Counted from the stretch's first letter, positions 20,718 through 63,031 are shown. The stretch: DNA of 64,000 nucleotides from Candidatus Stahliibacteriota bacterium (GCA_030602565.1 JAUVZL010000003.1:4160-68159), one strand, 5' to 3'. Notes: a model not told the origin generated them from the letters alone. Made by a program: numbers and translations.

Positions 20718-20746
20718 ATTATACCCGAAATATCGGTACATGTCAA
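20718..20746 (-). promoter_or_regulatory. Consensus promoter TTGACA-17 nt-TATAAT for tRNA-Pro(TGG)
   Basis: Perfect hexamers immediately upstream of the tRNA 5-prime end. Confidence 0.6.
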
Positions 20747-20863
20747 CCCCCACACCTAATCGACCGTTTTCTACATGCGATATTTCGTAAGTCATCCGTG
20801 TTGTTCAAACATAAGCATTTGCTGATAGCACCAGCATAATGAAGGATTAGGTGTGGGGGTTTC

Positions 20864-20891
20864 TTGACACCTTGTATTTATTGTATATAAT
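20864..20891 (+). promoter_or_regulatory. Promoter TTGACA-16 nt-TATAAT; the -10 ends 5 nt before the ATG at 20897
   Basis: Divergent from the tRNA promoter; implies a leaderless or near-leaderless mRNA. Confidence 0.5.
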
Positions 20892-20896
20892 CTCCA

Positions 20897-21967
20897 ATGC
20901 GTATACTCATGCTCAGCGGCAAAGATGCACTAAAACGACAGATTAACAATATTCTGAACCTGGAAAAGGCAGTGCAAAAATACATTAAAAACAAACGAAT
21001 ACATCAGGTGATTTTCTTGTACTATGATAGAAAAAACCGGTTTAAGGTAAAAAAAACAAAAAAAGATGCACGATCAATCAGAAAATTTATCCAACAACTG
21101 GAAACAAAATGGGGCAATATCGACTGCTTGTTGATTCTGGGCGGCGATAAGGTAGTGCCTTTTTTTCGACTTAAAAACCCGTGTGATGACAACGATAAGA
21201 AAGTGCTGTCTGATAACCCATATGCATCACGGGATAATAATTTTCTTATCCCGGAACGTGTTTGTGCACGGCTCCCGGATAATAATGATGCCGGTTTTAT
21301 TATCGGACAATTGAAGAAATACAGCAAGGTTACGCTGAAGTCATTTGGTATAAGTACGAAAGTCTGGAAAAAGGCATCAGAGAATGTATACCAGCAAATC
21401 GGTAAGGTCAGAGATATGAAGGTTTCACCGCCGGTTAAAAGCAAGACATTCAAAGCTCGATGGCTCCAAAATAAGGACTTTTTATACTTCAACCTACACG
21501 GCAGTAAACTCTCAGCGAATTGGTACGGTCAAAAAGGTGGCAAATACCCGGTTGCCATCGGCTTAGAAAATATTAAAAAAGCATCAGGTGTGGTTGGGTG
21601 TGAAGCTTGTTATGGGGCATATATTTTGAACAAATCCCAAGAAAATGCAATGTCCCTCAAGCTTCTTGGTGAAAAAAGAATTTACGGATTTTGTGGTTCA
21701 ACGACAATTGCCTATGGACCAGTTGCCCCACCGTCGAGTGAGGCTGATCTCATGGTAAAATACTTTTTTGAATATGTGAACCAGGGTCTCACATTGGGTG
21801 AAAGCTTTAAGAATGCAAAGCTTGATTTTGCGCGGAAAGTGTTGAGACGTCAAGGGTTTTTAGATGACGATGACCAGAAGACGCTACTCCAGTTCGTCTT
21901 ATATGGTGATCCCACGTTTCGACTGGAGCACAAAATTTTTAAGAAAAAAGGGAAGAAGCAAAAATGA
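20897..21967 (+). CDS. Peptidase C25 (gingipain)-family-like clan CD cysteine peptidase domain protein without a signal peptide
   Basis: YFNLHGS...W (His motif), VGCEACYG (Cys motif) and C-terminal LYGDPTF, the same three motifs as in the 1057-aa C25 protein at 59858. Confidence 0.5.
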   Translation: MRILMLSGKDALKRQINNILNLEKAVQKYIKNKRIHQVIFLYYDRKNRFKVKKTKKDARSIRKFIQQLETKWGNIDCLLILGGDKVVPFFRLKNPCDDNDKKVLSDNPYASRDNNFLIPERVCARLPDNNDAGFIIGQLKKYSKVTLKSFGISTKVWKKASENVYQQIGKVRDMKVSPPVKSKTFKARWLQNKDFLYFNLHGSKLSANWYGQKGGKYPVAIGLENIKKASGVVGCEACYGAYILNKSQENAMSLKLLGEKRIYGFCGSTTIAYGPVAPPSSEADLMVKYFFEYVNQGLTLGESFKNAKLDFARKVLRRQGFLDDDDQKTLLQFVLYGDPTFRLEHKIFKKKGKKQK

Positions 21968-22242
21968 TTAATAAGAAAACAGTCAATAGAATAAAAAGGA
22001 TGGTTTCTAAACAATTCCCGGAGTTTAAAGGGATTGACCCGAAAATACTGGAGAGGAAAGTTAAGCCGCAGAGTGCAATCTACAGAAAACTGTTACTTGG
22101 TACACCGAAGATATTGGGAAAAGTCTTTCGATTGAAGTTCGAAAAGAAAGTGACAACTGTTGATGAGATGGAGATTGACCGGATTTTGACCGTGACCCTC
22201 AATGAGGCGGGTAAAATAATAAAGATAACTGAATCACGATGA
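21964..22242 (+). CDS. Hypothetical basic 92-aa protein overlapping both neighbours by 4 nt (ATGA)
   Basis: ATGA overlaps with the upstream C25-like gene and the downstream atpC. Confidence 0.45.
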   Translation: MINKKTVNRIKRMVSKQFPEFKGIDPKILERKVKPQSAIYRKLLLGTPKILGKVFRLKFEKKVTTVDEMEIDRILTVTLNEAGKIIKITESR

Positions 22243-23153
22243 TAACAGGAACTGACGATACAAGGTATGCATATGTAAATGGTATCATACGCGCACGCGA
22301 GGCTCGGTTACTGACGAAAAGTCATTTTGACCGACTCATCGCCAGTACCTTAAGCAATTTTGCGACAATACTATCAGATTCACCTTATATTGGGCATGAA
22401 GATGTTACCGCAGGTTTTGATTTGGAGGAGAATCAGATTGGGGATTTATTCAGAAAATACTGCCAGCACAGTGAGATCCAACAGTATATTGACTGGCCTC
22501 AGCAGATTCATAATATAAAGGTGAAATTGAAAGGGGGTAGTGATTCTTTACTTTATGCACAGCCCGGCACGGAAATCGAAGACTGGCCTGAAACTATTGA
22601 AGAGATTGAAAGATTTACGGTGGACAAAGACCCGTTTATACTCTCGGCAAACCTCGATAAAATTTTGTGCAAATACCTGTACCAAACTGCCCGGACAATG
22701 CCGTTTTTTAAAGGCTATTTTCAGATTTATTTTGACCTTGAAAATATCCGTAGTTTTTTTAGAGCACGTCACTTTGAAAACGCGCGCGAAATATTTAACC
22801 AGGTATTTATAGAATACGGCAGCCTTGGTCGAGAAATATTTGTCGATAATTTGACGAGTGGGTATGATGTACTGGGTAAAAATTTCTTTACAACACCTTA
22901 TGCTGGAGTAATGGATAAAGGAGGAGCATATTTTGAGCAAAATAGATCCTTTCTGAAACTGGAAAGGATGTGCGAAGAGCTGAGGTTAGAATTCTTGCGC
23001 CAGGCACGTAAGATGACTTTTGGCGTCGAACCATTGTTTACGTATTATCAATTTAAGCTTGCAGAAATAAAAAAACTGCGGCAAGTTTATTGGGGTAAGT
23101 TGAACGAAGTCCCGGTTGATGATTTGAAGGAGAGTATCCCTGATGTCTGGTAA
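22239..23153 (+). CDS. atpC: A/V-type ATPase subunit C
   Basis: YAYVNGIIRAREARLL N-terminal signature, 304 aa. Confidence 0.8.
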   Translation: MITGTDDTRYAYVNGIIRAREARLLTKSHFDRLIASTLSNFATILSDSPYIGHEDVTAGFDLEENQIGDLFRKYCQHSEIQQYIDWPQQIHNIKVKLKGGSDSLLYAQPGTEIEDWPETIEEIERFTVDKDPFILSANLDKILCKYLYQTARTMPFFKGYFQIYFDLENIRSFFRARHFENAREIFNQVFIEYGSLGREIFVDNLTSGYDVLGKNFFTTPYAGVMDKGGAYFEQNRSFLKLERMCEELRLEFLRQARKMTFGVEPLFTYYQFKLAEIKKLRQVYWGKLNEVPVDDLKESIPDVW

Positions 23154-23466
23154 AGCAATGGCAATAATCGGGCAAAGAGAAACAATAATGCCATTTCTGG
23201 CAACTGGGGCACATGTCGTCTATATTAAAGAGGGCGAAAGTGTTAATATTGTTGAGGAACTTGTTGCTCAAGGCTTCAAGATTATCTTTTTTACTGAAGA
23301 GTTTATCGATGAATTAGATAGTGTTTTGATGAAATACCGTAATCAAACCATTCCTTGTTTGATTCCCATCCCGACTGGAAGGGGTAAGACAAAACTTGCT
23401 ATTGAAAGGATAAGAGGTGTGATTAAAAAAGCTGTTGGAGTTGATGTCTTCTTGGAGGAAAAATGA
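23143..23466 (+). CDS. atpF: A/V-type ATPase subunit F
   Basis: 107 aa, IAVIGDRDT-like N-terminus ([12 protein letters not shown]); operon position. Confidence 0.7.
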
Positions 23467-25253
23467 GGAAAGGTGAAATTACCAAAGTATCAGGACCACT
23501 TGTTGTAGCGAAAGGCATGAAAGGCAGCAAGATGTACGATGTGGTTCGGGTGAGTGAAGAGCGTCTGGTCGGCGAAATAATCGGGCTTTCTGGCGATACC
23601 GCGTCAATTCAGGTATATGAGGAAACATCTGGTATTGGTCCTGGTGAGCCGGTTTACATAACTGACAAACCCCTCTTTGTTGAGCTTGGACCTGGTCTTA
23701 TTGAATCAATTTATGATGGTATTCAGCGACCTTTGGATATTATCAGAGATCAAACTGGTGATAATATTGCTCGTGGTGTGGAAATCCCTGCATTGGAACG
23801 CGACGTGAAGTGGGTGTTCAAGCCACTTGTTAAAAAAGGTGATGCAGTATCCAGTGGTGATATTATAGGTGAGGTGAAAGAGACCGTACTTGTTTTACAC
23901 AAGATAATGGTTCCGCATAATATCGAAGGCAAAATAAAGAACATTAAACAAGGTGAGTTCCTGGTAACTGATACGGTGTGTGAGATTGAGACCAAGGATG
24001 GGGTTGTTAAACTTACAATGATGCAGCATTGGCCAGTACGTTTACCGCGTCCTTATAAGAAGCGGCTTGCGCCATCACTCGTACTATCGACTGGGCAGCG
24101 GGTGATTGATACATTTTTTCCAATTGCTAAGGGTGGTACGGCTTGCTGTCCTGGTCCTTTTGGAAGCGGCAAGACTGTGATTCAACACCAATTAGCTAAA
24201 TGGGCAGATGCGGAGATAATAGTTTACATCGGGTGTGGTGAACGAGGTAATGAGATGACCGATGTGCTTATGGAATTCCCCGAGTTAAAGGATCACAGGT
24301 CCGGTGAATCACTGATGAAACGGACCGTACTGATCGCCAATACGTCGAATATGCCGGTCGCGGCACGAGAAGCTTCAGTTTATACTGGTATTACGATAGC
24401 TGAGTATTTTCGAGATATGGGGTATTCAGTGGCGGTTATGGCTGATTCAACATCGCGTTGGGCTGAAGCGATGAGAGAAATATCAGGTAGGTTAGAAGAG
24501 ATGCCCGGAGAAGAGGGGTACCCTGCTTATCTCAGTGCAAAAGTCAGTTCATTTTATGAAAGAGCAGGTAGGATCGAGGCAATTGGCAAACCAGACCGAG
24601 AAGGTGCCCTGAGTGTAATCGGTGCGGTATCGCCGCCAGGCGGAGATTTGTCTGACCCGGTTGTTCAGGCGACGCTGCGTGTTGTGAAGGTTTTCTGGAG
24701 TCTTGAGGATAGATTGGCATATCAGCGTCATTTCCCGGCGATTTCATGGTTAAACTCTTATTCTCTTTATATCGACGACATCAGTGAGGAATTGAATACG
24801 ACTATTGCAAAGGATTTTACAGATCTAACAAAGGAAGCCATGCGTCTCTTAGAACAGGAAGCTGAGCTTCAGGAGATCGTAAGGCTCATTGGGGTTGATG
24901 CTTTATCTCCAGAAGATCGCTTGATTCTCGAGGGCGCGAAGTCTATTCGCGAGGATTTCTTGCATCAAAATGCATTCCACGAAGTTGATACGTATGCTTC
25001 TCTTGAGAAACAATACAAAATGCTTGCGGTGTGTTTGTTTAACTACAATAAGGCAAAAGAGGCGTTATCACGCGGTGCTGCATTTAACGACATCATCAAA
25101 ATGAAAGTTCGAGAGAAAATATCGCGTATGCGGTACTTGTTAGAATCAGAGCTATCAATTATCGATCGGTTGCAGGATGAGGTGACAGAGGAATTCAAAA
25201 AACTCGCAAATCCAGGAGGAAGAAATGATAAAGGAATACAGCAGCATTCTTAA
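23463..25253 (+). CDS. atpA: A/V-type ATPase catalytic subunit A
   Basis: Walker [10 protein letters not shown], 596 aa, non-homologous insert region typical of A subunits. Confidence 0.9.
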
Positions 25254-26613
25254 TGTATCCGGTCCACTCTTGCTTATTGAAGGTGTTGAAGGCGCAAAGT
25301 ATCAAGAATTGGTTGAAATCTACACACGAGATGGTGAAAAGAAACGTGGCAGGGTTCTGGAGGTAGATAAAGACAAGGCTTTGGTTCAGATTTTTGAAGG
25401 GTCCACAGGTATTGATGTACAGGATTGCCGTGTTAGATTTCTCGGTCGGACACTGCACATTGGTGTATCATCTGATATGTTAGGCAGGATCTTTGACGGA
25501 CTGGGTAGGCCTAAAGATGGTGGTCCTGAAATCATCCCTGAAGCAATGCTTGACATAAACGGCGCACCGATCAATCCAACTGCCCGGGATTACCCAAATG
25601 AATTTATCCAGACCGGGATTTCTTCAATCGATGGCATCAACACGTTGGTAAGAGGTCAAAAACTGCCGATCTTTTCAGGTTCTGGTTTACCCCACAACCG
25701 GGTTGCCGCTCAGATTGTGCGGCAGTCAAAGGTTCTTGGTGGTAAGGAGGAATTCGCAGTTGTGTTTGGCGCAATGGGCATCACTTTTGAAGAAGCGAAT
25801 TTCTTTATTCAGGATTTTACCAAATCAGGGGCATTGGAAAGAGTCGTGCTTTTCTTAAACCTGGCTGATGATCCGGCAATTGAACGTGTTTCCACACCCC
25901 GCGTTGCCTTCACCGTTGCCGAGTATCTTGCCTTTGAAAAAGGTTTGCACATCCTTGTTATCCTTTCTGATATGACTAATTATGCTGAGGCGCTCCGGGA
26001 AATATCTGCGGCGCGTAAGGAGATTCCAGGACGACGTGGCTATCCTGGGTATCTGTACACTGATTTGGCAAGTGTCTATGAACGTTCCGGCAGAATAAAG
26101 GGTAAGAAAGGCTCGATCACACTGATACCTATCCTTACGATGCCTGAGGATGACAAAACTCACCCGATACCGGATTTGACCGGTTACATAACTGAAGGTC
26201 AGGTAATTCTTTCAAGGTCGCTTTATCGAAAAAAGGTTACCCCGCCGATCGACGTGCAGCAGTCATTGTCCCGTCTAAAAGATAAAGGTATTGGTAAAGG
26301 TAAAACGCGTGAAGACCATGCTGATTTATTTAACCAGTTAATCGCGTGTTATGCACGAGGTAAAGAGGCTGCTGAACTATCCGTAATATTAGGTGAGGCA
26401 TCTCTGTCTGATTTAGATAGGATATTTCTTAAATTCTCAAACCAGTTTGAAGAACGTTATATTTCTCAAGGTGAAAAAGAGAATAGAACGATCGAGCAAA
26501 CTCTGGATCTTGGTTGGGAACTACTGCGTATGGTACCGCGAGCTGAAATGAAGAGAGTGAGGGATGAATACCTGGAGAGATACTATGACCACACAGATGA
26601 CACAGAAAAATAA
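25225..26613 (+). CDS. atpB: A/V-type ATPase subunit B
   Basis: 462 aa, a P-loop-containing A/B-family fold without a canonical Walker A, as expected for subunit B. Confidence 0.9.
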
Positions 26614-26623
26614 GGATGCACAG

Positions 26624-27007
26624 ATGAACCACGATGATAATTTCCCCCACAAAGAGGTTACATACAACATTATCGGTATTGCTATGAGAATCCACAGGGA
26701 ATTGGGTTCTGGTTTCTTGGAAGCAGTCTATGAAGAAGCTTTGATCGCTGAATTTAATGAAAACAACATTTCTTACAGAAACCAAATCCCTCTCGAGATA
26801 CATTATAAAAGTACGAGGCTAAAGAAAAAGTATCGTGCTGATTTCGTAATAGATGGGAAAGTTCTTGTTGAAATAAAGAAAACAAAAGACCTTACTAAAA
26901 TAGATGAAATGCAAATGATAAACTATTTAAAGGCTTCGAACCTAAAAGTAGGGCTGTTATTGAATTTTGGTATGGGGAGCTTACAATGGAAAAGGATAAT
27001 ATATTGA
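26624..27007 (+). CDS. GxxExxY protein (PD-(D/E)xK nuclease-like), inserted between atpB and atpD
   Basis: GFLEAVYEEAL motif, about 127 aa, own AAGGA RBS. Confidence 0.7.
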   Translation: MNHDDNFPHKEVTYNIIGIAMRIHRELGSGFLEAVYEEALIAEFNENNISYRNQIPLEIHYKSTRLKKKYRADFVIDGKVLVEIKKTKDLTKIDEMQMINYLKASNLKVGLLLNFGMGSLQWKRIIY

Positions 27008-27053
27008 ATAATCTGAGTAATCGATTTATCACAAAATCTGTGGAATCAGTGCT

Positions 27054-27674
27054 ATGAAGCTGGATATTCCACCGACCAGGATGCAGTTGCTGCGTTTGAA
27101 GCGACGTGGTACAATTGCCCGGCGTGGCCATAAATTGCTCAAGGATAAACAGGATGAATTAATGCGCAGGATTCTTGAACTCGTTGGCAAAATACGGGAT
27201 TCCCGTTTAAAGATTGAACAGGAGTTGAAAAGCGCGTTTGGCTATTTCTACTTTGCTTCGAGTAAACAGTCTCCCAAAGCCACTGACGAAGCGCTTTTGG
27301 CAACGACCAAAGCTATTGATGTGGACTATACCACAGAACGTATTTTGAACTTGAAAATCCCCAAGTTTAAACAAACGATATCAGGTGGTTTGATCGGCTA
27401 TGGTTTCATGACCACATCAGGTGATTTGGATCTCGCCCTTTTGAAGATCGACCAGCTCATTTCGAGATTACTTGAGCTCGCCGAGCTGGAAAAAGCACTT
27501 GAGCTTCTTGCTACGGAAATTGAGAAAACCCGTAGGAGAGTTAATGCATTAGAATATATCCTAATACCGTCTATTTACGAGACGATCAAGTTTATTAAGC
27601 TGAAAATGTCAGAAATGGAACGGGGAGACCTCACTCGGCTTATGCGGGTAAAAGAGATAGTGAGGGGAAAATAA
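27054..27674 (+). CDS. atpD: A/V-type ATPase subunit D
   Basis: PTRMQLLRLKRRGTIARRGHKLLKDKQDELM signature, coiled-coil, 206 aa. Confidence 0.85.
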   Translation: MKLDIPPTRMQLLRLKRRGTIARRGHKLLKDKQDELMRRILELVGKIRDSRLKIEQELKSAFGYFYFASSKQSPKATDEALLATTKAIDVDYTTERILNLKIPKFKQTISGGLIGYGFMTTSGDLDLALLKIDQLISRLLELAELEKALELLATEIEKTRRRVNALEYILIPSIYETIKFIKLKMSEMERGDLTRLMRVKEIVRGK

Positions 27675-27745
27675 GAAGGCTCAAAGAGAGAGAAAAGAAT
27701 AAGAGAATAGAAGATTTTTTAGGTATTTTGGCATTTAGGCATTTA

Positions 27746-27785
27746 CCCAAGCCCGTTGCAAATGGGCTGGGTTTAGGTATTTGAT
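27746..27785 (+). terminator. Possible intrinsic terminator after atpD (AGCCC-loop-GGGCT then T-rich tract)
   Basis: Hairpin plus TTTAGGTATTTGATTT. Confidence 0.3.
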
Positions 27786-27802
27786 TTGTACAAGGAGGTA
27801 TC

Positions 27803-28033
27803 ATGATTGAAGGTTTAGTGAGTGTTTTGATATTGGCTTTCCTTACCTTAATCTTTGGTTTAATAAAAGATCTGCTTATTGTCATTATCCCACAGATTAT
27901 TTTAATCCTCGTAGTAATCTATCTCTTGGTCCGTGTACGCGTAAAAATCTCCAAAGCTGAAAAGGAAAAACTAAGAACCAAGATAGATGAATTGGAAGCA
28001 AAGATTGGGACTATAGGAACAAAGAAAGAGTAA
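27803..28033 (+). CDS. Small membrane protein (2 TM helices plus a charged coiled-coil tail)
   Basis: Strong AAGGAGGT RBS; not a proteolipid (no Gly-rich helices, no TM carboxylate). Confidence 0.5.
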   Translation: MIEGLVSVLILAFLTLIFGLIKDLLIVIIPQIILILVVIYLLVRVRVKISKAEKEKLRTKIDELEAKIGTIGTKKE

Positions 28034-28101
28034 CCAGAACTGAAAACATAGCAGCCGTGCTGTTATGATGTCCTTATGTTATACAATAAGGGTTTGATTT
28101 C

Positions 28102-29307
28102 ATGAAAAAACTCCTCGGGATTATTGTTTTTGTTATCATCGCCACCTTATCCTATATCTTGGTAAGTAAAGCCGTGTTCGTTTCTAATGAGTTGGGTCTT
28201 GGTTTGGCGTCAAGCATATTAGACCAAGAAAACAAGTGTTTTGATCGATCATATAAGCAGATTTCCGATTCTTTATTGTCAATATGGGATACTCTATTTA
28301 AGACATCAGGGGTTAGAGATAACCCCTTTGCGATGATGCTTTATTTCATTGAATATTTCAGAGCCATGGACCAAACAGATAGTGATGAGTGTTTTTCTCT
28401 CCACGAGATAATAGCTAATAATAACACTAATTTAGTAAGCTCAGTGATCGCAACGTGTGCCATCATGCAGAAAATGGGCTGGGATTTTCAGTCCTTTTTC
28501 AGTGAAAATGAATGTTACCTGGGCATTCATTTTACTGGAGATTGGCAGGTAAGAAAAGGCAATTGGGTTGAAAAAGATGGAAAGAGTTATTTCTTGAAAG
28601 AGTTTGATTATGAAACACCAATTGGTGAATTGAAGAACGATAACCCTGCTTCAACATATCAGTGCCTCAGGAGTTCTAAGGTGGATCTGGAGCCAATGCC
28701 TTTGGTTAATGGTCTCCCAGTATTTCACGGTCCGAGTAATGAAAAACACTTGGTGTGGTTTTATCAAGGTAAGAAGTATGCTGTTTCTGTTTGGATTCCT
28801 CAAGGACAAGCTGAATTTACCAGGAATCTACCGGCAAGCCTATTTGGTACTATTGCATCAGGGGTTTACGAATTCAGCAATATGGGCTTGATCGATAATT
28901 TGAAATATCTCGTAGAAGATTTTGAAGAATATGATAAAGTCAATTTCCTTTTTAAATTAAGTCAGTCAGAAAGCATTTTTGTTTACGATAATAAGAAGCC
29001 TATAAAAAGCGTTACCAATCAATTGATTGAAGGACATAATGACTGTGATGGCAGGAGTATTTTTCTTTATTGTTTACTTGACGCTGTTCTTGGCTATGAC
29101 AGTACAGATATAGTTTTTATCAACTGGACAAATCATCTGGCGATCGGGTTGAGACCCAGGACCAGAACAGCTGAAGAAATTTTAAAGGAACAAGATGCCG
29201 TATATGTCGGTGATAAATACTACATACTTGATCCTGCTTATGTTGGCGATACACATTGGGGCAGCAAGATGGAACGGCTCTCAGGTGAGTGTGAGATAAT
29301 TAAGTGA
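28102..29307 (+). CDS. Membrane-anchored protein with a transglutaminase-like Cys-His-Asp core (CDGRSIFLYC...NHLAIGL...YILDP)
   Basis: N-terminal TM segment; motif-level match to transglutaminase-like cysteine peptidases. Confidence 0.4.
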   Translation: MKKLLGIIVFVIIATLSYILVSKAVFVSNELGLGLASSILDQENKCFDRSYKQISDSLLSIWDTLFKTSGVRDNPFAMMLYFIEYFRAMDQTDSDECFSLHEIIANNNTNLVSSVIATCAIMQKMGWDFQSFFSENECYLGIHFTGDWQVRKGNWVEKDGKSYFLKEFDYETPIGELKNDNPASTYQCLRSSKVDLEPMPLVNGLPVFHGPSNEKHLVWFYQGKKYAVSVWIPQGQAEFTRNLPASLFGTIASGVYEFSNMGLIDNLKYLVEDFEEYDKVNFLFKLSQSESIFVYDNKKPIKSVTNQLIEGHNDCDGRSIFLYCLLDAVLGYDSTDIVFINWTNHLAIGLRPRTRTAEEILKEQDAVYVGDKYYILDPAYVGDTHWGSKMERLSGECEIIK

Positions 29308-33880: not shown

Positions 33881-36800
33881 TTATAGTAATGTCAAGGATG
33901 GAGAAAATTTCTGTGAGTAGTTTCTTGCCTGGCTCACAAATGTTTCAAGGCGCATTGCCTCAACCGCATGTTCTAATCCATCGAGTGAGAGTACGAAAAG
34001 CGGGAAGTCTGGATATTCATCTTTTATTCCCTTATAAAGCGTAGTTACGATATTACCCGGCATGCACGTGAAGGGCATAACATTGACCACCCCAGAAAAA
34101 TTATCGTGGATGCATTCAATCGTCTTGCCGATAGTTAATATTGTCTCACCTTCAAATGAAGGGTGGACATATTTCTCGGCAAGGTTTAGCAAGGTAATGA
34201 TATCTGCTTCTGAATTCACCCCTAAAACCTTGTAGATTTTGTTCTGACGCCATTTCATGTATCGATCGAATAGCTTGGTAAAAATTAACCTTCGATACTG
34301 GTTAAACCACCGGCAGTTCATTACTCTCGTGAAATTCGTATAAAAGATCCATTCACCGATTGAAGGCATTGATACTTCGCAACCAAGTTCCTCAAGCTTT
34401 TCAATCAGATAATTGTTGCTGAATTTTTGGGACCGTACATATATTTCACCCGCGATGCCAATTTTTGGCTTGGAGTTGTTCCTATCTATTTTTACAGCAT
34501 CAAGCTTTTTGCGCACGCGTTTGAGAAACGGCAATACCGGCTTGCCGTGTTCTATCATATTACAAATTGTATCAAGGGCGTTGTCATAGACCTTGTCGGT
34601 TTCACCAGCTTTCTTTTCGTAGGGTCTAATCATACGTACTCTGGCTTCCAATCCGTCAACCACGCACATGCCATCCCAGGCCGAAATGAGAAATCTCAAG
34701 CCTATTGTTCCCAGGTCATCAAACAGACTGGGTCCTTGATTTGGAGCGTAGATCGGCACCTCAGACAAGCCCAAATCGTCGAGGATTATTCTATGGAGCT
34801 TATAGTACTGGCCGAAACGACACGGACCAGAACCCTGGGCCATGAAAAAAGCACTCTTTGCCGGGTCAAAATTTGGTTCATTAGCTTTCTTGACCATATC
34901 ACCAGCTGTGATAATAGCCGGGAGACATTCTTTTCCAGATGTAAATTGGCGACCAATGGTCACTGATTCTTCGTCAGGTGATGGTAATACCTTTGCATCA
35001 ATGCCGGCGTACCGCATTGCCGCAGCAAAAACCTTAGCCGTATCACACATATCAGGTACATATATAGTTCTATCCTTGCGGATTTCGCTTTTTGCCTTTA
35101 TCTTTCTTGATGTTCCTATATTTTTTGCGCCTTTGATGCTATCATAGAATGCTTCACATCTTGTGATGAATCCAGCATCACCTGAGTGCTCGTCGATTTC
35201 AATAAGGAGAAATGGTTTCTCACCGAGTTTTTCCTTGAAAAAACGCGTTAGAAAGGAATCAGGACCGCAAGCGAAATTAGAAAGATAGACAGCAAATAAA
35301 TTTTTGTTCTTGCTGATGGTTTCAGCGGCACCTAAGATACGTTGACCATAGTGCCAATACATATTGTAAAAATCTTCCTTAAGCGCTTGATAATCCATTG
35401 GTATGAAATCAATAGGTAGTGCATGTACACCGAGATCTCTGATTTTCTTGGGAATGTCCAAGTTCAACCCAAGGTCATAGCCATTATAGGGTCTTGAGCA
35501 AACGACAAAAGCAAGGTCTTTGATATTAGCTAATGCCTGTTGCCCTAAATCACTGATCTTTTCGCTTGTTTTTTGATAATGGATAGTTGCCTGCTTTATC
35601 GCATTTCTTACTTGTTTTGCAGTTTTACCAAATTGCTTACCGAATTCGATAAGCGATTCCTCAACACCAGATTTGCCGCGGTCAAAATAGACGCTCGGTG
35701 AAAGGACGCTGATTTTACTACCAAAGATTGCCCTTGCCATACAAGGGATAGTCTGCACATAGGGGCAGACAAAACATCGAGTAAATTTTTCATCCTTTTG
35801 TTGCATAGAAATGATGCTGGGCAGGAATACTTGATTGACCCCTTTGTTTAACAGATTACGAATATGCCCGAGCGCAACTTTTATTGGTAAACATGTATCG
35901 GCGACCGAGAGTTCAGCGCCGCTCTCAATGGTTTTGCGGTTTGTCGACTCTGAAAGAACTGGTTTGAAACCGAGCGTGGTGAGGAACCTGTAGAAAAAAG
36001 GAAAAAGCTCATAGAATCCAAGGCAGCGCGGCATACCGATCTCAATCCCTTCTATATTTTCTGTTTTAAAAAAAATCTCATTGCGCAGCCTAAAATAATC
36101 AGGTAACTTAGATCCTGTTTTCTTTTTTTCTTCATATCTTTCACAACGACCGCCATAAAATATCGGATTTTCGCCTTTGATAACGATCTTGTTTAGTTCA
36201 CATTCATTGCTACAATGCTTACATATAAATGATTCTGAAGTGTATTGCCGGGTACCAAGATCAAACCCCCGGAATTTTGTCTTTTCAAGGTTTGCTTCAC
36301 GGGCAAGCAGAGCAATGCCAATGGCACCGGTTATGTCATAGTTGGTCGGCACGGTGATTTTTTTCTTCAAGACCTGTTCAAAAGCTGAAACAACGGTTTT
36401 GTTCGCGGCAACACCACCCTGAAAGAATATTCTATTACCGATCCGTTTACCATTAACCACACGATTGATATAGTTAAAGACAATAGAGTAACCGAGTCCA
36501 GCAAGGAGGTTTTCTCGTTCTGTAGTATCACTTTGGTGATGGATCACCTCAGAGCCAATGAATACAGTACAGCGGTCGCCGAGATTTATCGGTGATTTCG
36601 CATTAAGCGCTATATCACCGAAATCTTCAAGTTCAATACCAAGCACTTCTGCCTGTTCTTCTAAGAAAGAACCTGTACCAGCGGCACAGACCTTATTCAT
36701 TTCAAAATCAACGATTGTCTTGTTGCGCAGGCTTATGTATTTTGAATCCTGTCCGCCGATTTCAAAGATCGTGTCAACTGTTGGATCTATTTCAATGGCA

Positions 36801-37963
36801 GCTCTTGCCTGCGCTGATATTTCGTTCTTTATAATGTCGGCGCCAATGAATTCACCGATCAAATAGCGACCAGAGCCAGTCGTACCAACACCGGCGATCT
36901 CGACTTTAGTGCCGATTTCTTTTGCCAGTTCTCTTAAACCCTGGAGTACAATATCAATGGGTCGTCCTTGTGTCCACATATATCTTCGGGCAAGGACATT
37001 GCCGTTATCGTCGATGAGAACCAGATTTGTCGATATCGAGCCTACATCAACACCAAGGTATGTTTTTGTCTTACGCGCGGGTGATGAGAATTCAGTTATG
37101 GGGTGCCATTTTTTATAGCCATCCAAGGGTGCCAACCGTTTGACAACCCGGGGCTGGGTGAGCCATTGTTCAAAAGCTTTAAGACCCTTGAATTTTTTTG
37201 TACCATCAGTTTTCCTTGTACTGAGCACCGCGCCGATTGCACCGATGCAATTGTAGTTTTTTGGGATAATAAGGTCACTTGGAGATATATCGAGGATTTC
37301 CTGGAATGCTCTGATCATCCCCTGATTTCCAGCCACACCACCGACAAATACAACGGGTTTTGATATCGGTTTGCCTTTTGCAATAACGCTCTTGAAATTG
37401 CGCGCCAGAGCAAAACAGAGTCCAGACATTAGATCCTCGGGTTTTGTACCTATCTGCTGGAGATGGATCATGTCGCTTTTTGCGAATACTGAACATCGAC
37501 CGGCAATCCTTGCCGGATTTTTTGAACGCAGAGCAACTTGACCAAAATCTTCAATATTAAAACATAGTCGGCGTGCTTGCTGGTCAAGAAAAATACCTGT
37601 GCCCGCTGCGCATATTGTATTTGAAGCGAAATCTTTAATTATTTTATTGCTTATATTTATCAACTTAGAATCTTCACCGCCGATTTCTATTATCGAACGT
37701 ATTTCAGGATGGAAATAGAGTACGCCTTGGGTTGTCGCTTCGACTTCATTGACATAGGCAGCACCGAGTATATTATGCAGATGTTTAGCACAACTGCCGG
37801 TCAGTACAAGCCGATCAACCTCAGTGAATGTTTTCAGAGTCTCGAAGAGTAGATTATACGGTTTGCCGTGATGTTTTATATATCTGGTTTTGATGAGTTT
37901 TTCATCAATGAATTCAGCAAGCTTCAGGCTTACTGACCCGATATCCATACCGTATTCGTGCAT
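33881..37963 (-). CDS. Fused CoA-substrate-specific enzyme activase (two BadF/BadG/BcrA/BcrD-type ATPase modules plus a DUF2229-like region), 1360 aa
   Basis: Duplicated acetate/sugar-kinase-fold ATPase motifs (ICAAGTGIFLDQQA, VCAAGTGSFLEEQA) and multiple Cys ligands. Confidence 0.7.
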   Translation of the reverse strand: MHEYGMDIGSVSLKLAEFIDEKLIKTRYIKHHGKPYNLLFETLKTFTEVDRLVLTGSCAKHLHNILGAAYVNEVEATTQGVLYFHPEIRSIIEIGGEDSKLINISNKIIKDFASNTICAAGTGIFLDQQARRLCFNIEDFGQVALRSKNPARIAGRCSVFAKSDMIHLQQIGTKPEDLMSGLCFALARNFKSVIAKGKPISKPVVFVGGVAGNQGMIRAFQEILDISPSDLIIPKNYNCIGAIGAVLSTRKTDGTKKFKGLKAFEQWLTQPRVVKRLAPLDGYKKWHPITEFSSPARKTKTYLGVDVGSISTNLVLIDDNGNVLARRYMWTQGRPIDIVLQGLRELAKEIGTKVEIAGVGTTGSGRYLIGEFIGADIIKNEISAQARAAIEIDPTVDTIFEIGGQDSKYISLRNKTIVDFEMNKVCAAGTGSFLEEQAEVLGIELEDFGDIALNAKSPINLGDRCTVFIGSEVIHHQSDTTERENLLAGLGYSIVFNYINRVVNGKRIGNRIFFQGGVAANKTVVSAFEQVLKKKITVPTNYDITGAIGIALLAREANLEKTKFRGFDLGTRQYTSESFICKHCSNECELNKIVIKGENPIFYGGRCERYEEKKKTGSKLPDYFRLRNEIFFKTENIEGIEIGMPRCLGFYELFPFFYRFLTTLGFKPVLSESTNRKTIESGAELSVADTCLPIKVALGHIRNLLNKGVNQVFLPSIISMQQKDEKFTRCFVCPYVQTIPCMARAIFGSKISVLSPSVYFDRGKSGVEESLIEFGKQFGKTAKQVRNAIKQATIHYQKTSEKISDLGQQALANIKDLAFVVCSRPYNGYDLGLNLDIPKKIRDLGVHALPIDFIPMDYQALKEDFYNMYWHYGQRILGAAETISKNKNLFAVYLSNFACGPDSFLTRFFKEKLGEKPFLLIEIDEHSGDAGFITRCEAFYDSIKGAKNIGTSRKIKAKSEIRKDRTIYVPDMCDTAKVFAAAMRYAGIDAKVLPSPDEESVTIGRQFTSGKECLPAIITAGDMVKKANEPNFDPAKSAFFMAQGSGPCRFGQYYKLHRIILDDLGLSEVPIYAPNQGPSLFDDLGTIGLRFLISAWDGMCVVDGLEARVRMIRPYEKKAGETDKVYDNALDTICNMIEHGKPVLPFLKRVRKKLDAVKIDRNNSKPKIGIAGEIYVRSQKFSNNYLIEKLEELGCEVSMPSIGEWIFYTNFTRVMNCRWFNQYRRLIFTKLFDRYMKWRQNKIYKVLGVNSEADIITLLNLAEKYVHPSFEGETILTIGKTIECIHDNFSGVVNVMPFTCMPGNIVTTLYKGIKDEYPDFPLFVLSLDGLEHAVEAMRLETFVSQARNYSQKFSPSLTLL

Positions 37964-59857: not shown

Positions 59858-62800
59858 ATGCGTAAAATATGGGCATTCTGTATTATATTGGTAATATTCG
59901 GCTCTCTTTTTGGTCAAGAAGGTGCTGAATATCTTATCATTACACATAATAATTTTGCTCAAACTATTAATAGTTTGACAGAATGGAAATATATGAAGGG
60001 GGTACAGACAAAGGTCGTAAAATTATCAGAGATCGGTGAGGATCCATCTAATGAGGATATTAGAAATTTTATTATTACAGCATATAACACCTGGGATCCA
60101 CAACCTGAATATGTGCTCCTTGTGGGTGACATCGGATTCTTGCCGGTGGGGCAGTCTTCTCCGTGTAGGAGTGATAATTATTATGCCAATATGGAAGGTG
60201 ATTTTAAAGCAGAGCTAAGTGTCGGCAGATTTCCATGTCAGACCGCTTGCGAATGTAGCACCATGGCAAATAAAATCATGGCATATGAACGGACTCCATG
60301 GTTGGAAGATACCATGTGGTTTAAAAAGAGCACGATTGTCATCAGATTTGATGATCTTGGTGATACTCTGGGCTATTATGTCCAAGACCTTCGTTATATT
60401 CGTGATACTTGTATGATTCCTGCCGGTTTTAACGTTGATTCGTTATTTAATCGAGCTGGTCAGGGTTGGCATAATCAGGGACCAGATAGTGCTCGCCATG
60501 TTATTAACGTGCTCAATAATGGACGGGGATTTCTTGTCTATCGCGGCGAGTCTGCTCATGATTGGTATTCACCCTTTAACGGAATTCCAGATTCAGTACG
60601 GCTATCAAACGGCTCCAAACTCCCGATAATTTTTGCCGGCGCTTGCACATCAGTTTTAACCGGCAGTAGCGTTGGAGAAAAGTGGCTGAGTGCCGGAACA
60701 CCGGATATGCTCAAGGGTGCAGTTGCTTATATTGGCAATTCTCAAGCTGGTTCTTCTAGTTGGCGGCATCATGTTAATCGTGCTTTCTTTAAAGCAATTT
60801 GCTTAGAGGATAGCCTTATATTAGGGCACGCATTCCTTAGAGCCAAAGACAGTCTTTATGCTAATTATCCAAACTATGAAGCATATTATGTTGAATGTAA
60901 TCTTCTGGGTGACCCCACTCTACAATTGTGGACTGAGGTTCCCAAATCTATGACTGTTCAGCATCCAGATGTAATTGAAATGAATGTTCCTATTGACCTT
61001 GTGATTACAGTTTATGACACAGAATCTCAGTTACCGATTCAGGGTGCCCTGGTTACTCTTTATAAACCTAATGGTTCTGGCCCTGAAATATATGAATCAA
61101 CAATTACTGATGATGAAGGAATGGTTGTTTTTGAAAATCTTACGGTTCCAACATCTGGTATAATGTATGCAACCATTACTTTCCAAAACTGTGTACCGTA
61201 TCAAGGCGAAATTCAGGTTTACCAGATGATGACTGACGACCCATTGGCTTTGGCTTATAATGGTAACCGTCATCTCGTGCGGAAGCCGAACAGTGAAGAA
61301 TTATATCTGGTTTATACAAATGAAGACGAAATAATTTACCGCTATTCATCAAACGGCGGCAATGACTGGTCTTCACCCCTGATTATTGGCGATGGTAAAT
61401 TCCCGGCAATCACCTTAAGCTCTGATTATTTGCCTTCAGTATCCTGGACTGATGATGATGGTGGTTTGTGGTATAGAAGACAAACTGGAGCCGGGCAGTG
61501 GAGCGATATATATCATCTTTGGAATCCTGTAGGCGTTGACCCCTTACGTCTTAACTCACCGCCTTCTATTGCGATTCATGCATCCAATCCAAATACAGTG
61601 CACATTCTTGTTACACGCACTGGAGGACCGCCCCGGGATGTAAACCACAGGGTCGAAGACTATACCTTCACTATTACCATACCTATGCAGGGAACGTTTG
61701 TGCTGATCGAGCAAGCACATGGTCCTCACGATCCACCGCTCCGAACTTTCCCCTCAATTGCACGATGCGAGGTGAACAACTCGCTCCACGCGGTCTGGCA
61801 ACGCAGTGATACAATCTGTTATGCAACAAAACCAAGAAATGATCCGTGGGTGAATTGGGGCCCAGAGTTTGAATTGGATGGTCTTCAATCAGCCCATCCT
61901 TTTGTTGAGACCTATGGGGATTCAATCTTCGTGGTCTGGCAGAGAAAAGAAGGCTTTTACAATTATGAAGAAGTCTATCGAGCAGCGAGACATCTTTCTT
62001 ATACTTTTGGTTGGCGCAACTTCAGTCTAACCCCTGCGACTAAATCTCTCTATCCTGTTAATGCCTCAGGCTTTTTCACGGTCTTTGTTGATTTACCCAG
62101 TCCATATATGAATACCTGGTGGGAAATCTATTATAAAACTCGTCCTCAAGAACCTCTTTATAATATCAGCCGAGCACCTTACACCTGGTCACACTATCCA
62201 CATTCAGCTGCAAGATTCTGTGCCATTAGTGGTTCTAATCTCTACACTGCATGGCTTGAGAAACCAGGGGCTGCATATGCAATACGATTCAAAAGGATTC
62301 ACCATATGCCACGCGATATGGCTTATCTGACCTCTTCTAATGGTCATAACCCTTCCTCTCCTTATCTAATTGCCCGTGACAGTTGCATATCCGAGTGGCA
62401 AATTCCTGTTGATATAGGCTATGAAACAATTACCTATCAATTCCCACTTGAGCCCGGTTATGAGTATAAGCTGAAAGCCGTTGCTTATCATGAGCGTGCA
62501 GACAAGTGGAAGGTGAAGATTAGCATTGATGGCGAAGAGGTCGGAGAAATCGAATATGAGACATACGAACCCGAGACCCTGGAACTCTGGATTCCTGCAG
62601 CATTTTATGCGGATGGTGTCATTAATGTTATTTTCGAGTGCGATGATGGTGATTTTGCCGCAGTAGGTCCAATCTTTATTTATCAGTATGAATACGAAGA
62701 AGGCGAAGGTGGATTCCCGGGCGGACCAATGACGCAGGAAAATCAACCCATAAATAAATTTTCTTTTATGATTACGCCAAATCCATTTATCCAAAACTTA

Positions 62801-63031
62801 AACATTAAATTCCAGAATCAGACTGAAAAAGGGATTAGTGTTAAAGTTTATGATGTTTCTGGTAGGTTGGTAAAGAATCTTTATAAGGGTGTGATAAAAG
62901 GAACCAGCATATTAAAGTGGGATAGTAAAGATGAAACTGGCGGGTCTGTGGCTCAAGGTGTATATTTCTTACAAGTTGAAAATTTTACTTCTGGTGACAC
63001 CTTCTGTAGAAAAATTATTAAGGTAAGGTAG
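59858..63031 (+). CDS. Secreted peptidase C25 (gingipain)-family protein with a type IX secretion C-terminal sorting domain
   Basis: Signal peptide; AGACTS Cys motif, LLGDPTL; C-terminal KVYDVSGRLVKNLYKG...GVYFLQV T9SS CTD. Confidence 0.7.
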   Translation: MRKIWAFCIILVIFGSLFGQEGAEYLIITHNNFAQTINSLTEWKYMKGVQTKVVKLSEIGEDPSNEDIRNFIITAYNTWDPQPEYVLLVGDIGFLPVGQSSPCRSDNYYANMEGDFKAELSVGRFPCQTACECSTMANKIMAYERTPWLEDTMWFKKSTIVIRFDDLGDTLGYYVQDLRYIRDTCMIPAGFNVDSLFNRAGQGWHNQGPDSARHVINVLNNGRGFLVYRGESAHDWYSPFNGIPDSVRLSNGSKLPIIFAGACTSVLTGSSVGEKWLSAGTPDMLKGAVAYIGNSQAGSSSWRHHVNRAFFKAICLEDSLILGHAFLRAKDSLYANYPNYEAYYVECNLLGDPTLQLWTEVPKSMTVQHPDVIEMNVPIDLVITVYDTESQLPIQGALVTLYKPNGSGPEIYESTITDDEGMVVFENLTVPTSGIMYATITFQNCVPYQGEIQVYQMMTDDPLALAYNGNRHLVRKPNSEELYLVYTNEDEIIYRYSSNGGNDWSSPLIIGDGKFPAITLSSDYLPSVSWTDDDGGLWYRRQTGAGQWSDIYHLWNPVGVDPLRLNSPPSIAIHASNPNTVHILVTRTGGPPRDVNHRVEDYTFTITIPMQGTFVLIEQAHGPHDPPLRTFPSIARCEVNNSLHAVWQRSDTICYATKPRNDPWVNWGPEFELDGLQSAHPFVETYGDSIFVVWQRKEGFYNYEEVYRAARHLSYTFGWRNFSLTPATKSLYPVNASGFFTVFVDLPSPYMNTWWEIYYKTRPQEPLYNISRAPYTWSHYPHSAARFCAISGSNLYTAWLEKPGAAYAIRFKRIHHMPRDMAYLTSSNGHNPSSPYLIARDSCISEWQIPVDIGYETITYQFPLEPGYEYKLKAVAYHERADKWKVKISIDGEEVGEIEYETYEPETLELWIPAAFYADGVINVIFECDDGDFAAVGPIFIYQYEYEEGEGGFPGGPMTQENQPINKFSFMITPNPFIQNLNIKFQNQTEKGISVKVYDVSGRLVKNLYKGVIKGTSILKWDSKDETGGSVAQGVYFLQVENFTSGDTFCRKIIKVR

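Follow-up and report, generated by a model that had tools for sequence, protein, structure and literature searches.

Soluble-sector V/A-type ATPase genes embedded in a C25-like peptidase operon of candidate division WOR-3: probably one half of an ordinary rotary enzyme

The V/A-type ATPase genes of Thermus thermophilus stand in the order atpGILECFABD, and those of Enterococcus hirae in the order ntpFIKECGABD. In a 64,000-nucleotide stretch of DNA from Candidatus Stahliibacteriota bacterium (GCA_030602565.1, JAUVZL010000003.1:4160-68159), which we refer to as the window, we find the soluble-sector genes atpC-F-A-B-D on their own, preceded by a gene for a 356-residue protein resembling the C25 peptidases and by a gene for a basic 92-residue protein (p92). 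These genes belong to a run of ten densely packed genes called on the + strand at 20897-29307, from the C25-like gene through p401, a gene for a 401-residue protein. We conclude that the locus very probably contributes to an ordinary rotary V/A-type ATPase that is encoded at two loci and whose soluble half rides in an unrelated peptidase operon. Once a second locus identified in related genomes is counted, the complement, with a G-like protein as candidate G, would be the nine subunits of the Thermus and Enterococcus operons, and the internal orders C-F-A-B-D and G-I-K-E are those of the two halves of a Thermus-type operon; one of the remoter WOR-3 lineages keeps all nine genes together in the canonical order G-I-K-E-C-F-A-B-D. 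Unlike in the Thermus-type operon, the two halves here lie at separate loci, and the C-F-A-B-D half is embedded among other genes, apparently without a promoter of its own.

The organism belongs to candidate division WOR-3 (Ca. Stahlbacteria), of which strain sy37 is the first cultured member (PMC12285271). Homologues of the 356-residue protein and of atpB are labelled candidate division WOR-3, Ca. Stahlbacteria or TA06, and the nearest relative is contig JBARXC010000152.1 (locus L002), which is collinear with the window at 91-96% nucleotide identity. An independent Logan contig (L001) carries all ten genes at 100% protein identity to the window, and the arrangement C25-p92-atpCFABD-p76, in which p76 encodes a 76-residue protein, recurs in ~22 species-level genomes. 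This recurrence, together with the identical Logan contig, indicates that the arrangement is not an accident of assembly.

By their profile matches, the five ATPase genes are unambiguously subunits of the V/A type and not of the F1 or FliI type. The soluble-sector set described in an earlier reading of the window made from its sequence alone (the sequence-only reading) agrees with our gene calls and coordinates, and all five genes pass their family profiles. V/A-type models score 777-917 bits on subunits A and B, whereas FliI and SctN models reach ~160-207 bits on the same subunits, against cut-offs of 380-630 bits for those models. The translation of atpA contains the Walker A motif GPFGSGKT. 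Separate A and B genes are present together with atpC, unlike in an ATPase of the FliI or type III secretion system (T3SS) type, which would have neither a B partner nor a C/d subunit. In addition, the subunits show close kinship to those of complete enzymes: A, B and D show 72-84% identity with their counterparts in contiguous complete operons, atpB is ~84% identical to the nearest relatives outside the group (loci L061/62, L072-74 and L079) and 89-98% identical among genomes that share the embedded arrangement, and atpC, at 304 residues, has the same length as in the contiguous operon of L061.

The membrane-sector genes I and K and the peripheral-stalk genes E and G had been reported as missing on both sides of the locus, and this holds for the whole 64-kb window. 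A tblastn search of the window with WOR-3 G, I, K and E proteins gave no match, the same search with those of the nearest relative gave a best E of 0.65, and no open reading frame (ORF) of 480-800 residues with at least five hydrophobic segments is present in it. A search that started from the K subunit of L061 retrieved K from genomes that carry the C25-atpCFABD arrangement, and thereby a second locus with a G-like gene, I, K and E followed by fusA and lgt. This locus is found in four genomes sharing the embedded arrangement, bounded by archease and MFS genes on one side and by fusA-lgt on the other, and further instances occur on Logan contigs. The C25-atpCFABD genes and the second locus lie, respectively, on contigs 152 and 229 of JBARXC01, the metagenome-assembled genome (MAG) of the nearest relative; at 2.62 Mb and 2.14 Mb (I-K-E) of CP070664.1, a chromosome-level MAG; on contigs 38 and 97 of TA06 DG_78 (LJNI01); and on contigs 78 and 86 of RBG_13_43_14 (MEUM01). 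In CP070664.1, 475 kb separate the two halves, which occupy different contigs in the other genomes.

In JBARXC01 the second locus reads G(106)-I(695)-K(158)-E(187)-fusA-lgt, with protein lengths in residues. Subunit I matches NF004428 with E = 1e-99 and keeps the arginine in LSYVRLMALGM; K matches NF005124 with 168 bits (cut-off 127) and keeps the glutamate in VEFYA; and E matches PF06188 with 24 bits (gathering threshold 23.5) and NF003049 with E = 5e-9. Sister lineages (L061/62, L072-74 and L079) carry all the genes in one contiguous operon, in which atpC-F-A-B-D is followed by a 106-residue coiled-coil protein, I (677 residues), K (159 residues) and E (187 residues). Since genomes with the embedded arrangement also carry the second locus, and sister lineages have contiguous operons, the locus is best read as one part of a normal holoenzyme's operon that is split in two. 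It is often necessary to compile ATPase gene sets from several clusters (PMC11738941).

Two further observations concern the second locus. In CP070664.1 (L065:1-9923, ~2.13-2.15 Mb), only residues 372-697 of atpI adjoin K-E, and upstream of this partial gene is a stretch of ~9 kb made up of small ORFs together with a terminase gene; Logan read-set contigs with an identical K carry an intact G-I(697)-K-E, and the partial atpI may reflect either a phage-like insertion or a mis-join. The 158-residue K subunit of the nearest relative (L077:6001-6477) contains PGTQG, a glutamine in AIWQGK and the glutamate in VEFYA. These residues correspond to those that bind Na+ in Enterococcus hirae NtpK, and the enzyme may be Na+-coupled.

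The surroundings of homologues of the 356-residue protein were compared at 59 genome loci. In one group (G1), comprising ~22 WOR-3, Stahlbacteria and TA06 species including that of the window, the order is C25-p92-atpCFABD-p76, often followed by p401. In a second (G2), comprising ~13 WOR-3 loci, C25, p92 and p76 are adjacent and no ATPase gene lies within 10 kb. A further WOR-3/TA06 group has the order mnmG-C25-p92-prepilin peptidase, and another combines the C25 gene, a p92-like gene and a TauE-like membrane protein. In Cloacimonadota the C25 gene occurs alone beside pilus genes (pilB-pilT-pilC-sensor-regulator-C25-sigma/anti-sigma), and no ATPase gene lies within 10 kb of the homologues from Chloroflexi, Acidobacteriota, Anaeromyxobacter and Micrarchaeota. 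Conversely, the nearest complete ATPase operons (L061, L072-74 and L079) lack a C25 gene in front of atpC and carry genes for pyruvate:ferredoxin oxidoreductase (POR) or serine dehydratase there. The stable unit is therefore C25 plus p92, joined by p76 in WOR-3, and the ATPase block fills the space from p92 to p76 in a lineage-specific manner.

These comparisons divide a proposal of the sequence-only reading, namely that Vo, E and G are encoded elsewhere and that the two upstream genes form a new accessory pair. The first part stands, with I, K, E and a G-like gene at the second locus; the second part is not supported, as C25 and p92 are tied to p76 and not to atpC. In the relatives, E, I and K lie at a second locus and the C25-like gene is not conserved beside atpC, the combination that the sequence-only reading had named as counting against its proposal. 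As a separate observation, the G2 operon converges on a ribosomal-protein operon (S14-L5-L24-L14-S17-L29-L16-S3) at loci L015, L018, L024-L026, L028, L030, L032, L033 and L075.

The history of the arrangement can be read in two ways. In a concatenated A+B+D tree the contiguous operons fall outside all the embedded ones, a topology consistent with one translocation that brought atpCFABD into the C25 operon. In the C25 tree the ATPase-free G2 is nested in G1 (G1+G2 monophyletic in 60/60 bootstraps, G2 in 56/60 and G1 in only 3/60), a topology that fits loss from an ancestral embedded state. We found no link between the G2 genomes and a contiguous ATPase operon; two look-ups matched other MAGs. 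An apparent 57-nucleotide atpC remnant at L023 was considered as a deletion scar and rejected, since it reflects an assembly gap, visible as a run of N.

In the arrangement that we propose, atpCFABD would supply the catalytic head and central rotor, while the 106-residue G/H-like protein and I, K and E would be supplied from the second locus. The holoenzyme would assemble from the products of both loci and would function in the standard manner, with A3B3 turning D-F-C against the K ring and with I and the E-G stalks holding the stator. C25-p92-p76, often with p401, is a separate conserved module, and in this lineage atpCFABD lies between p92 and p76. The C25-like protein would be a cytosolic clan-CD cysteine endopeptidase made in a fixed ratio with p92; p92 may act as its stoichiometric inhibitor, chaperone or adaptor, and p76 as a membrane partner at the inner membrane face. 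With low confidence, we suggest that the module serves regulated intracellular proteolysis.

Several observations weigh against this interpretation or parts of it. The p92/atpC ATGA overlap is present in all ~22 loci, and one strong promoter ahead of the whole run would also fit a functional link between the module and V1. The second locus is seen in close relatives, the nearest included, and the window's own genome was read for 64 kb alone; the search that the sequence-only reading had proposed for the entire genome finds I, K, E and a G-like gene in four relatives. Within the second locus, only its position, its size, a coiled-coil character and a weak V-ATPase_G_2 match (E = 0.04) mark the 106-residue protein as G-like. 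The structural model of the C25-like protein has low confidence exactly at its His and Cys loops (predicted local distance difference test score, pLDDT, < 50). Finally, the C25 tree allows for an embedded state of early origin that has been kept since.

The coupling, the promoter and the possible antiquity of the embedded state would also be expected if the C25-like protein, p92 and p76 were lineage-specific factors that assist, assemble or regulate the V/A-ATPase, for example by exerting proteolytic control of V1-Vo coupling, and p76 indeed stands directly after atpD in the ~22 species-level genomes. We nevertheless consider such a role unlikely, because the module persists as C25-p92-p76 in ~13 WOR-3 loci without ATPase genes, because the nearest full operons lack the C25 gene, because C25 and p92 also occur beside mnmG and prepilin-peptidase genes or a TauE-like gene, and C25 alone beside the Cloacimonadota pilus genes, and because the same domain is found in ~900-residue TPR fusions across a family of ~2000 representatives. 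A specific form of this idea, in which the three proteins act as a proteolytic or chaperone device for V1 assembly or V1-Vo coupling, seems to us quite improbable; if true, it would explain why a V1 half-operon has been kept translationally coupled in >20 species behind a conserved, predicted leaderless promoter.

The sequence-only reading had also raised the possibility of a V1-like ATPase that is soluble, needs no membrane sector and has been put to another use in the manner of FliI and the T3SS ATPases. The local absence of I, K, E and G within 64 kb is the sole point in its favor, and we regard it as very improbable, given that the same genomes hold intact I (with its arginine), K (with its glutamate), E and a G-like gene, that subunit C, known as the rotor's link to the K ring, has been kept, that A, B and D remain so similar to those of contiguous full operons, and that the scores of the FliI/SctN models fall well short of the cut-offs. 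A soluble, repurposed rotary ATPase should not be deduced from a V1-only cluster in a metagenome window; here the missing half lies elsewhere in the genome, a point that bears on the automated scoring of ATPase completeness in MAGs. As for the adjacency being a metagenomic chimera of two unrelated loci, we found nothing that favors it, although the scaffold gap inside atpC at L023 recalls that some MAGs are scaffolded; with an identical junction, in which the p92 stop overlaps the atpC start, in ~22 independent assemblies from different studies and in the Logan contig, its probability is close to nil.

The features of the locus are listed in Table 1. The ATGA overlaps of the C25-like gene and p92 with their neighbors, as previously described, can be read directly at both junctions, and a third is present at atpF/atpA.

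Table 1. Features of the C25-atpCFABD locus, in window coordinates
Feature	Position	Strand	Evidence or remark
Sigma-70-type promoter, TTGACA-N16-TATAAT	20864-20891	+	12/12 consensus match
C25-like gene, 356 residues	20897-21967	+	Pfam Peptidase_C25 (PF01364) 36.1 bits
p92, 92 residues, basic	21964-22242	+	Directly after C25-like gene; ATGA overlap at both ends
atpC, subunit C (eukaryotic d equivalent, rotor socket), 304 residues	22239-23153	+	PF01992 106.6 bits
atpF, central-stalk subunit F	23143-23466	+	PF01990 52.7 bits
atpA, catalytic subunit A	23463-25253	+	NF003220 890.6 bits (cut-off 470); TIGR01043 917 bits
atpB, subunit B	25225-26613	+	NF003235 777 bits (cut-off 349)
GxxExxY / PD-(D/E)XK_3 gene	26564-27007	+	TIGR04256 141.8 bits (cut-off 35); PF13366 132.8 bits
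atpD, central-stalk subunit D	27054-27674	+	PF01813 168.9 bits; TIGR00309 150 bits
p76, 76 residues, two transmembrane helices and a charged C-terminal helix	27803-28033	+	Recurrent C25-module neighbor
p401, 401 residues, N-terminal anchor	28102-29307	+	After p76 in 10 loci; just beyond the interval of the sequence-only reading

The Peptidase_C25 match of the 356-residue protein lies above the gathering threshold of 23 bits and covers residues 259-343 only, corresponding to profile positions 294-374. The pairs H201-G202 and A237-C238 are invariant in an alignment of 28 sequences and, in the structure model, follow predicted strands at 195-198 and 230-235. These correspond to the His-Gly and Ala-Cys motifs that follow hydrophobic strands in the gingipains RgpB and Kgp and in PorU (MEROPS family C25, clan CD). 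The model, a check that the sequence-only reading had suggested, recovers the gingipain fold, and on this basis the protein is predicted to have the gingipain-type two-subdomain architecture with its His/Cys pair, the putative catalytic dyad, at the ends of adjacent strands. The C25 assignment rests on Pfam and the fold, since a profile of the protein searched against PDB sequences did not retrieve the gingipains and hhalign against the other C25 protein of the window returned a weak local match with a probability of 8%.

Despite the shared motifs, the 356-residue protein is only 15-16% identical to the gingipains and PorU, and it differs from them in lacking a signal peptide, a prodomain, an Ig-like domain and a C-terminal domain for the type IX secretion system (T9SS), and in being paired with p92. 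Its N terminus is strand 1 of the fold (pLDDT 97), which leaves no signal peptide, and no Por_Secre_tail domain was found in it by the Pfam scan; the lack of these secretion features leads us to predict a cytosolic protein, in agreement with the earlier description of a clan CD/C25-like protein without signal peptide or T9SS domain. Secretion, though usual among gingipains, does not define the C25 family. The second C25 protein of the window (59858-63031, 1057 residues), in contrast, combines a Peptidase_C25 match of 182 bits with a signal peptide and the T9SS C-terminal domain Por_Secre_tail and is secreted, so that the window does contain, as claimed, one C25-family protein exported through the T9SS and one that appears cytosolic. 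The 356-residue protein matched no defence-system model in PADLOC, and no CRISPR or defence context was found.

An exhaustive profile search gave 1968 representatives at 50% clustering. Most of the relatives (P0377-P0509) are ~850-940 residues long with the C25-like domain at ~530-790, and those scanned have TPR repeats at the N terminus; PPC or FG-GAP domains occur in others. The WOR-3 protein is therefore the bare catalytic domain of a large and unstudied C25 subfamily, of which our literature searches found no description. A cytosolic location and, in many relatives, N-terminal TPR repeats are shared with TPR-CHAT and separase-type proteases; the gingipains nonetheless match the C25-like protein far more closely than the CHAT proteins do, and the WOR-3 protein consists of the catalytic domain alone. 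What remains once the ATPase is set aside is a widespread, unstudied subfamily of gingipain-fold peptidases, predicted to be cytosolic and accompanied by a constant small partner and a small membrane protein.

The small partner, p92, directly follows the C25-like gene in ~45 loci from WOR-3/TA06 and related uncultured lineages. It is basic, as had been noted (23 K+R vs 10 D+E), and is predicted to form a helix followed by four strands. No match was obtained in Pfam, NCBIfam or PADLOC or with a 42-sequence profile against PDB sequences; a single-sequence model was poor (pLDDT 61), with no Foldseek match below E = 1. Our guess would be a PepSY-like or inhibitor fold. In staphopain-staphostatin operons a cysteine peptidase gene is followed by the gene for a small cytoplasmic inhibitor, and the C25-p92 pair resembles these, as an analogy only, in that a peptidase gene precedes a co-conserved small partner (~90-110 residues), here translationally coupled to it. 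The staphopains differ in belonging to another peptidase clan and in being secreted, and p92 shows no sequence or fold match to any inhibitor family.

The third member of the C25 module is p76, which directly follows p92 in the ~13 loci without ATPase genes and atpD in the others, and whose C-terminal helix is strongly conserved (RVRVKISxAEKEKLRxKIxELE). The frequent fourth member is p401. An alignment of 10 p401 homologues shows invariant Cys315 (NDCDGRS), His345 and Asp377, which together resemble a papain/transglutaminase-like triad; this likeness is suggested by the invariant Cys, His and Asp alone. Pfam scans of each member and a search of the p401 profile against the PDB returned nothing.

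A single consensus promoter precedes the first gene, as the sequence-only reading had stated, and its TATAAT ends 5 nucleotides before the ATG of the C25-like gene. The same geometry, TTGACa/t-N16-17-TATAAT ending 5 nucleotides before the ATG, is found in ~33 WOR-3 loci of both arrangements (L002-L033 and L055), which are only 59-95% identical in the C25-like protein. Such spacing leaves no room for a ribosome-binding site, so that the mRNA of the C25-like gene is predicted to be leaderless or nearly so, with the start site inferred from the promoter. No comparable promoter was seen upstream of atpC, and this, together with the ATGA overlap, makes it probable that atpCFABD is co-transcribed from the promoter of the module. 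The ~33 orthologous promoters form a clean set that predicts leaderless translation in WOR-3. What is new at this locus is the subfamily member of a known peptidase family and the conserved, predicted leaderless promoter, the ATPase being ordinary.

Repeats inside the locus are at chance level except for one inverted repeat that flanks promoters. This perfect 17-nucleotide repeat (GATTAGGTGTGGGGGTT) is located at 20745-20761 and 20845-20861, where it abuts the -35 hexamers of two divergent promoters with 12/12 consensus matches, one for tRNA-Pro (-) and one for the C25-like gene (+). It is shared with L001 and L002 and not with L003, and may be an upstream element common to the two promoters or the site of a regulator. 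A tRNA was the sole match of the Rfam scan.

The gene between atpB and atpD is a GxxExxY gene, as previously proposed, by its match to TIGR04256 (Table 1), and its true start is probably downstream of 26564. Among the ~22 loci with the embedded arrangement, a GxxExxY gene occupies this position only in the window, its identical Logan contig (L001) and L008, with a fragment in L002; at L044:4263-4655, a GxxExxY gene stands between the C25-like gene and p92. The scattered occurrence of the gene is that of an insert, not of an ATPase component, and genes of this family seem to land inside otherwise tight operons. The ATPase genes themselves vary in one respect: atpA encodes 596 residues in the window and in L003, and ~625-628 residues in L002 (14318-14422), L005, L006 and L007, the difference corresponding to ~100 nucleotides of additional sequence near the 3' end. 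Elsewhere in the window, 33881-37963 (-) encodes a 1360-residue fusion of BcrAD_BadFG ATPase domains and DUF2229, of the CoA-enzyme activase type.

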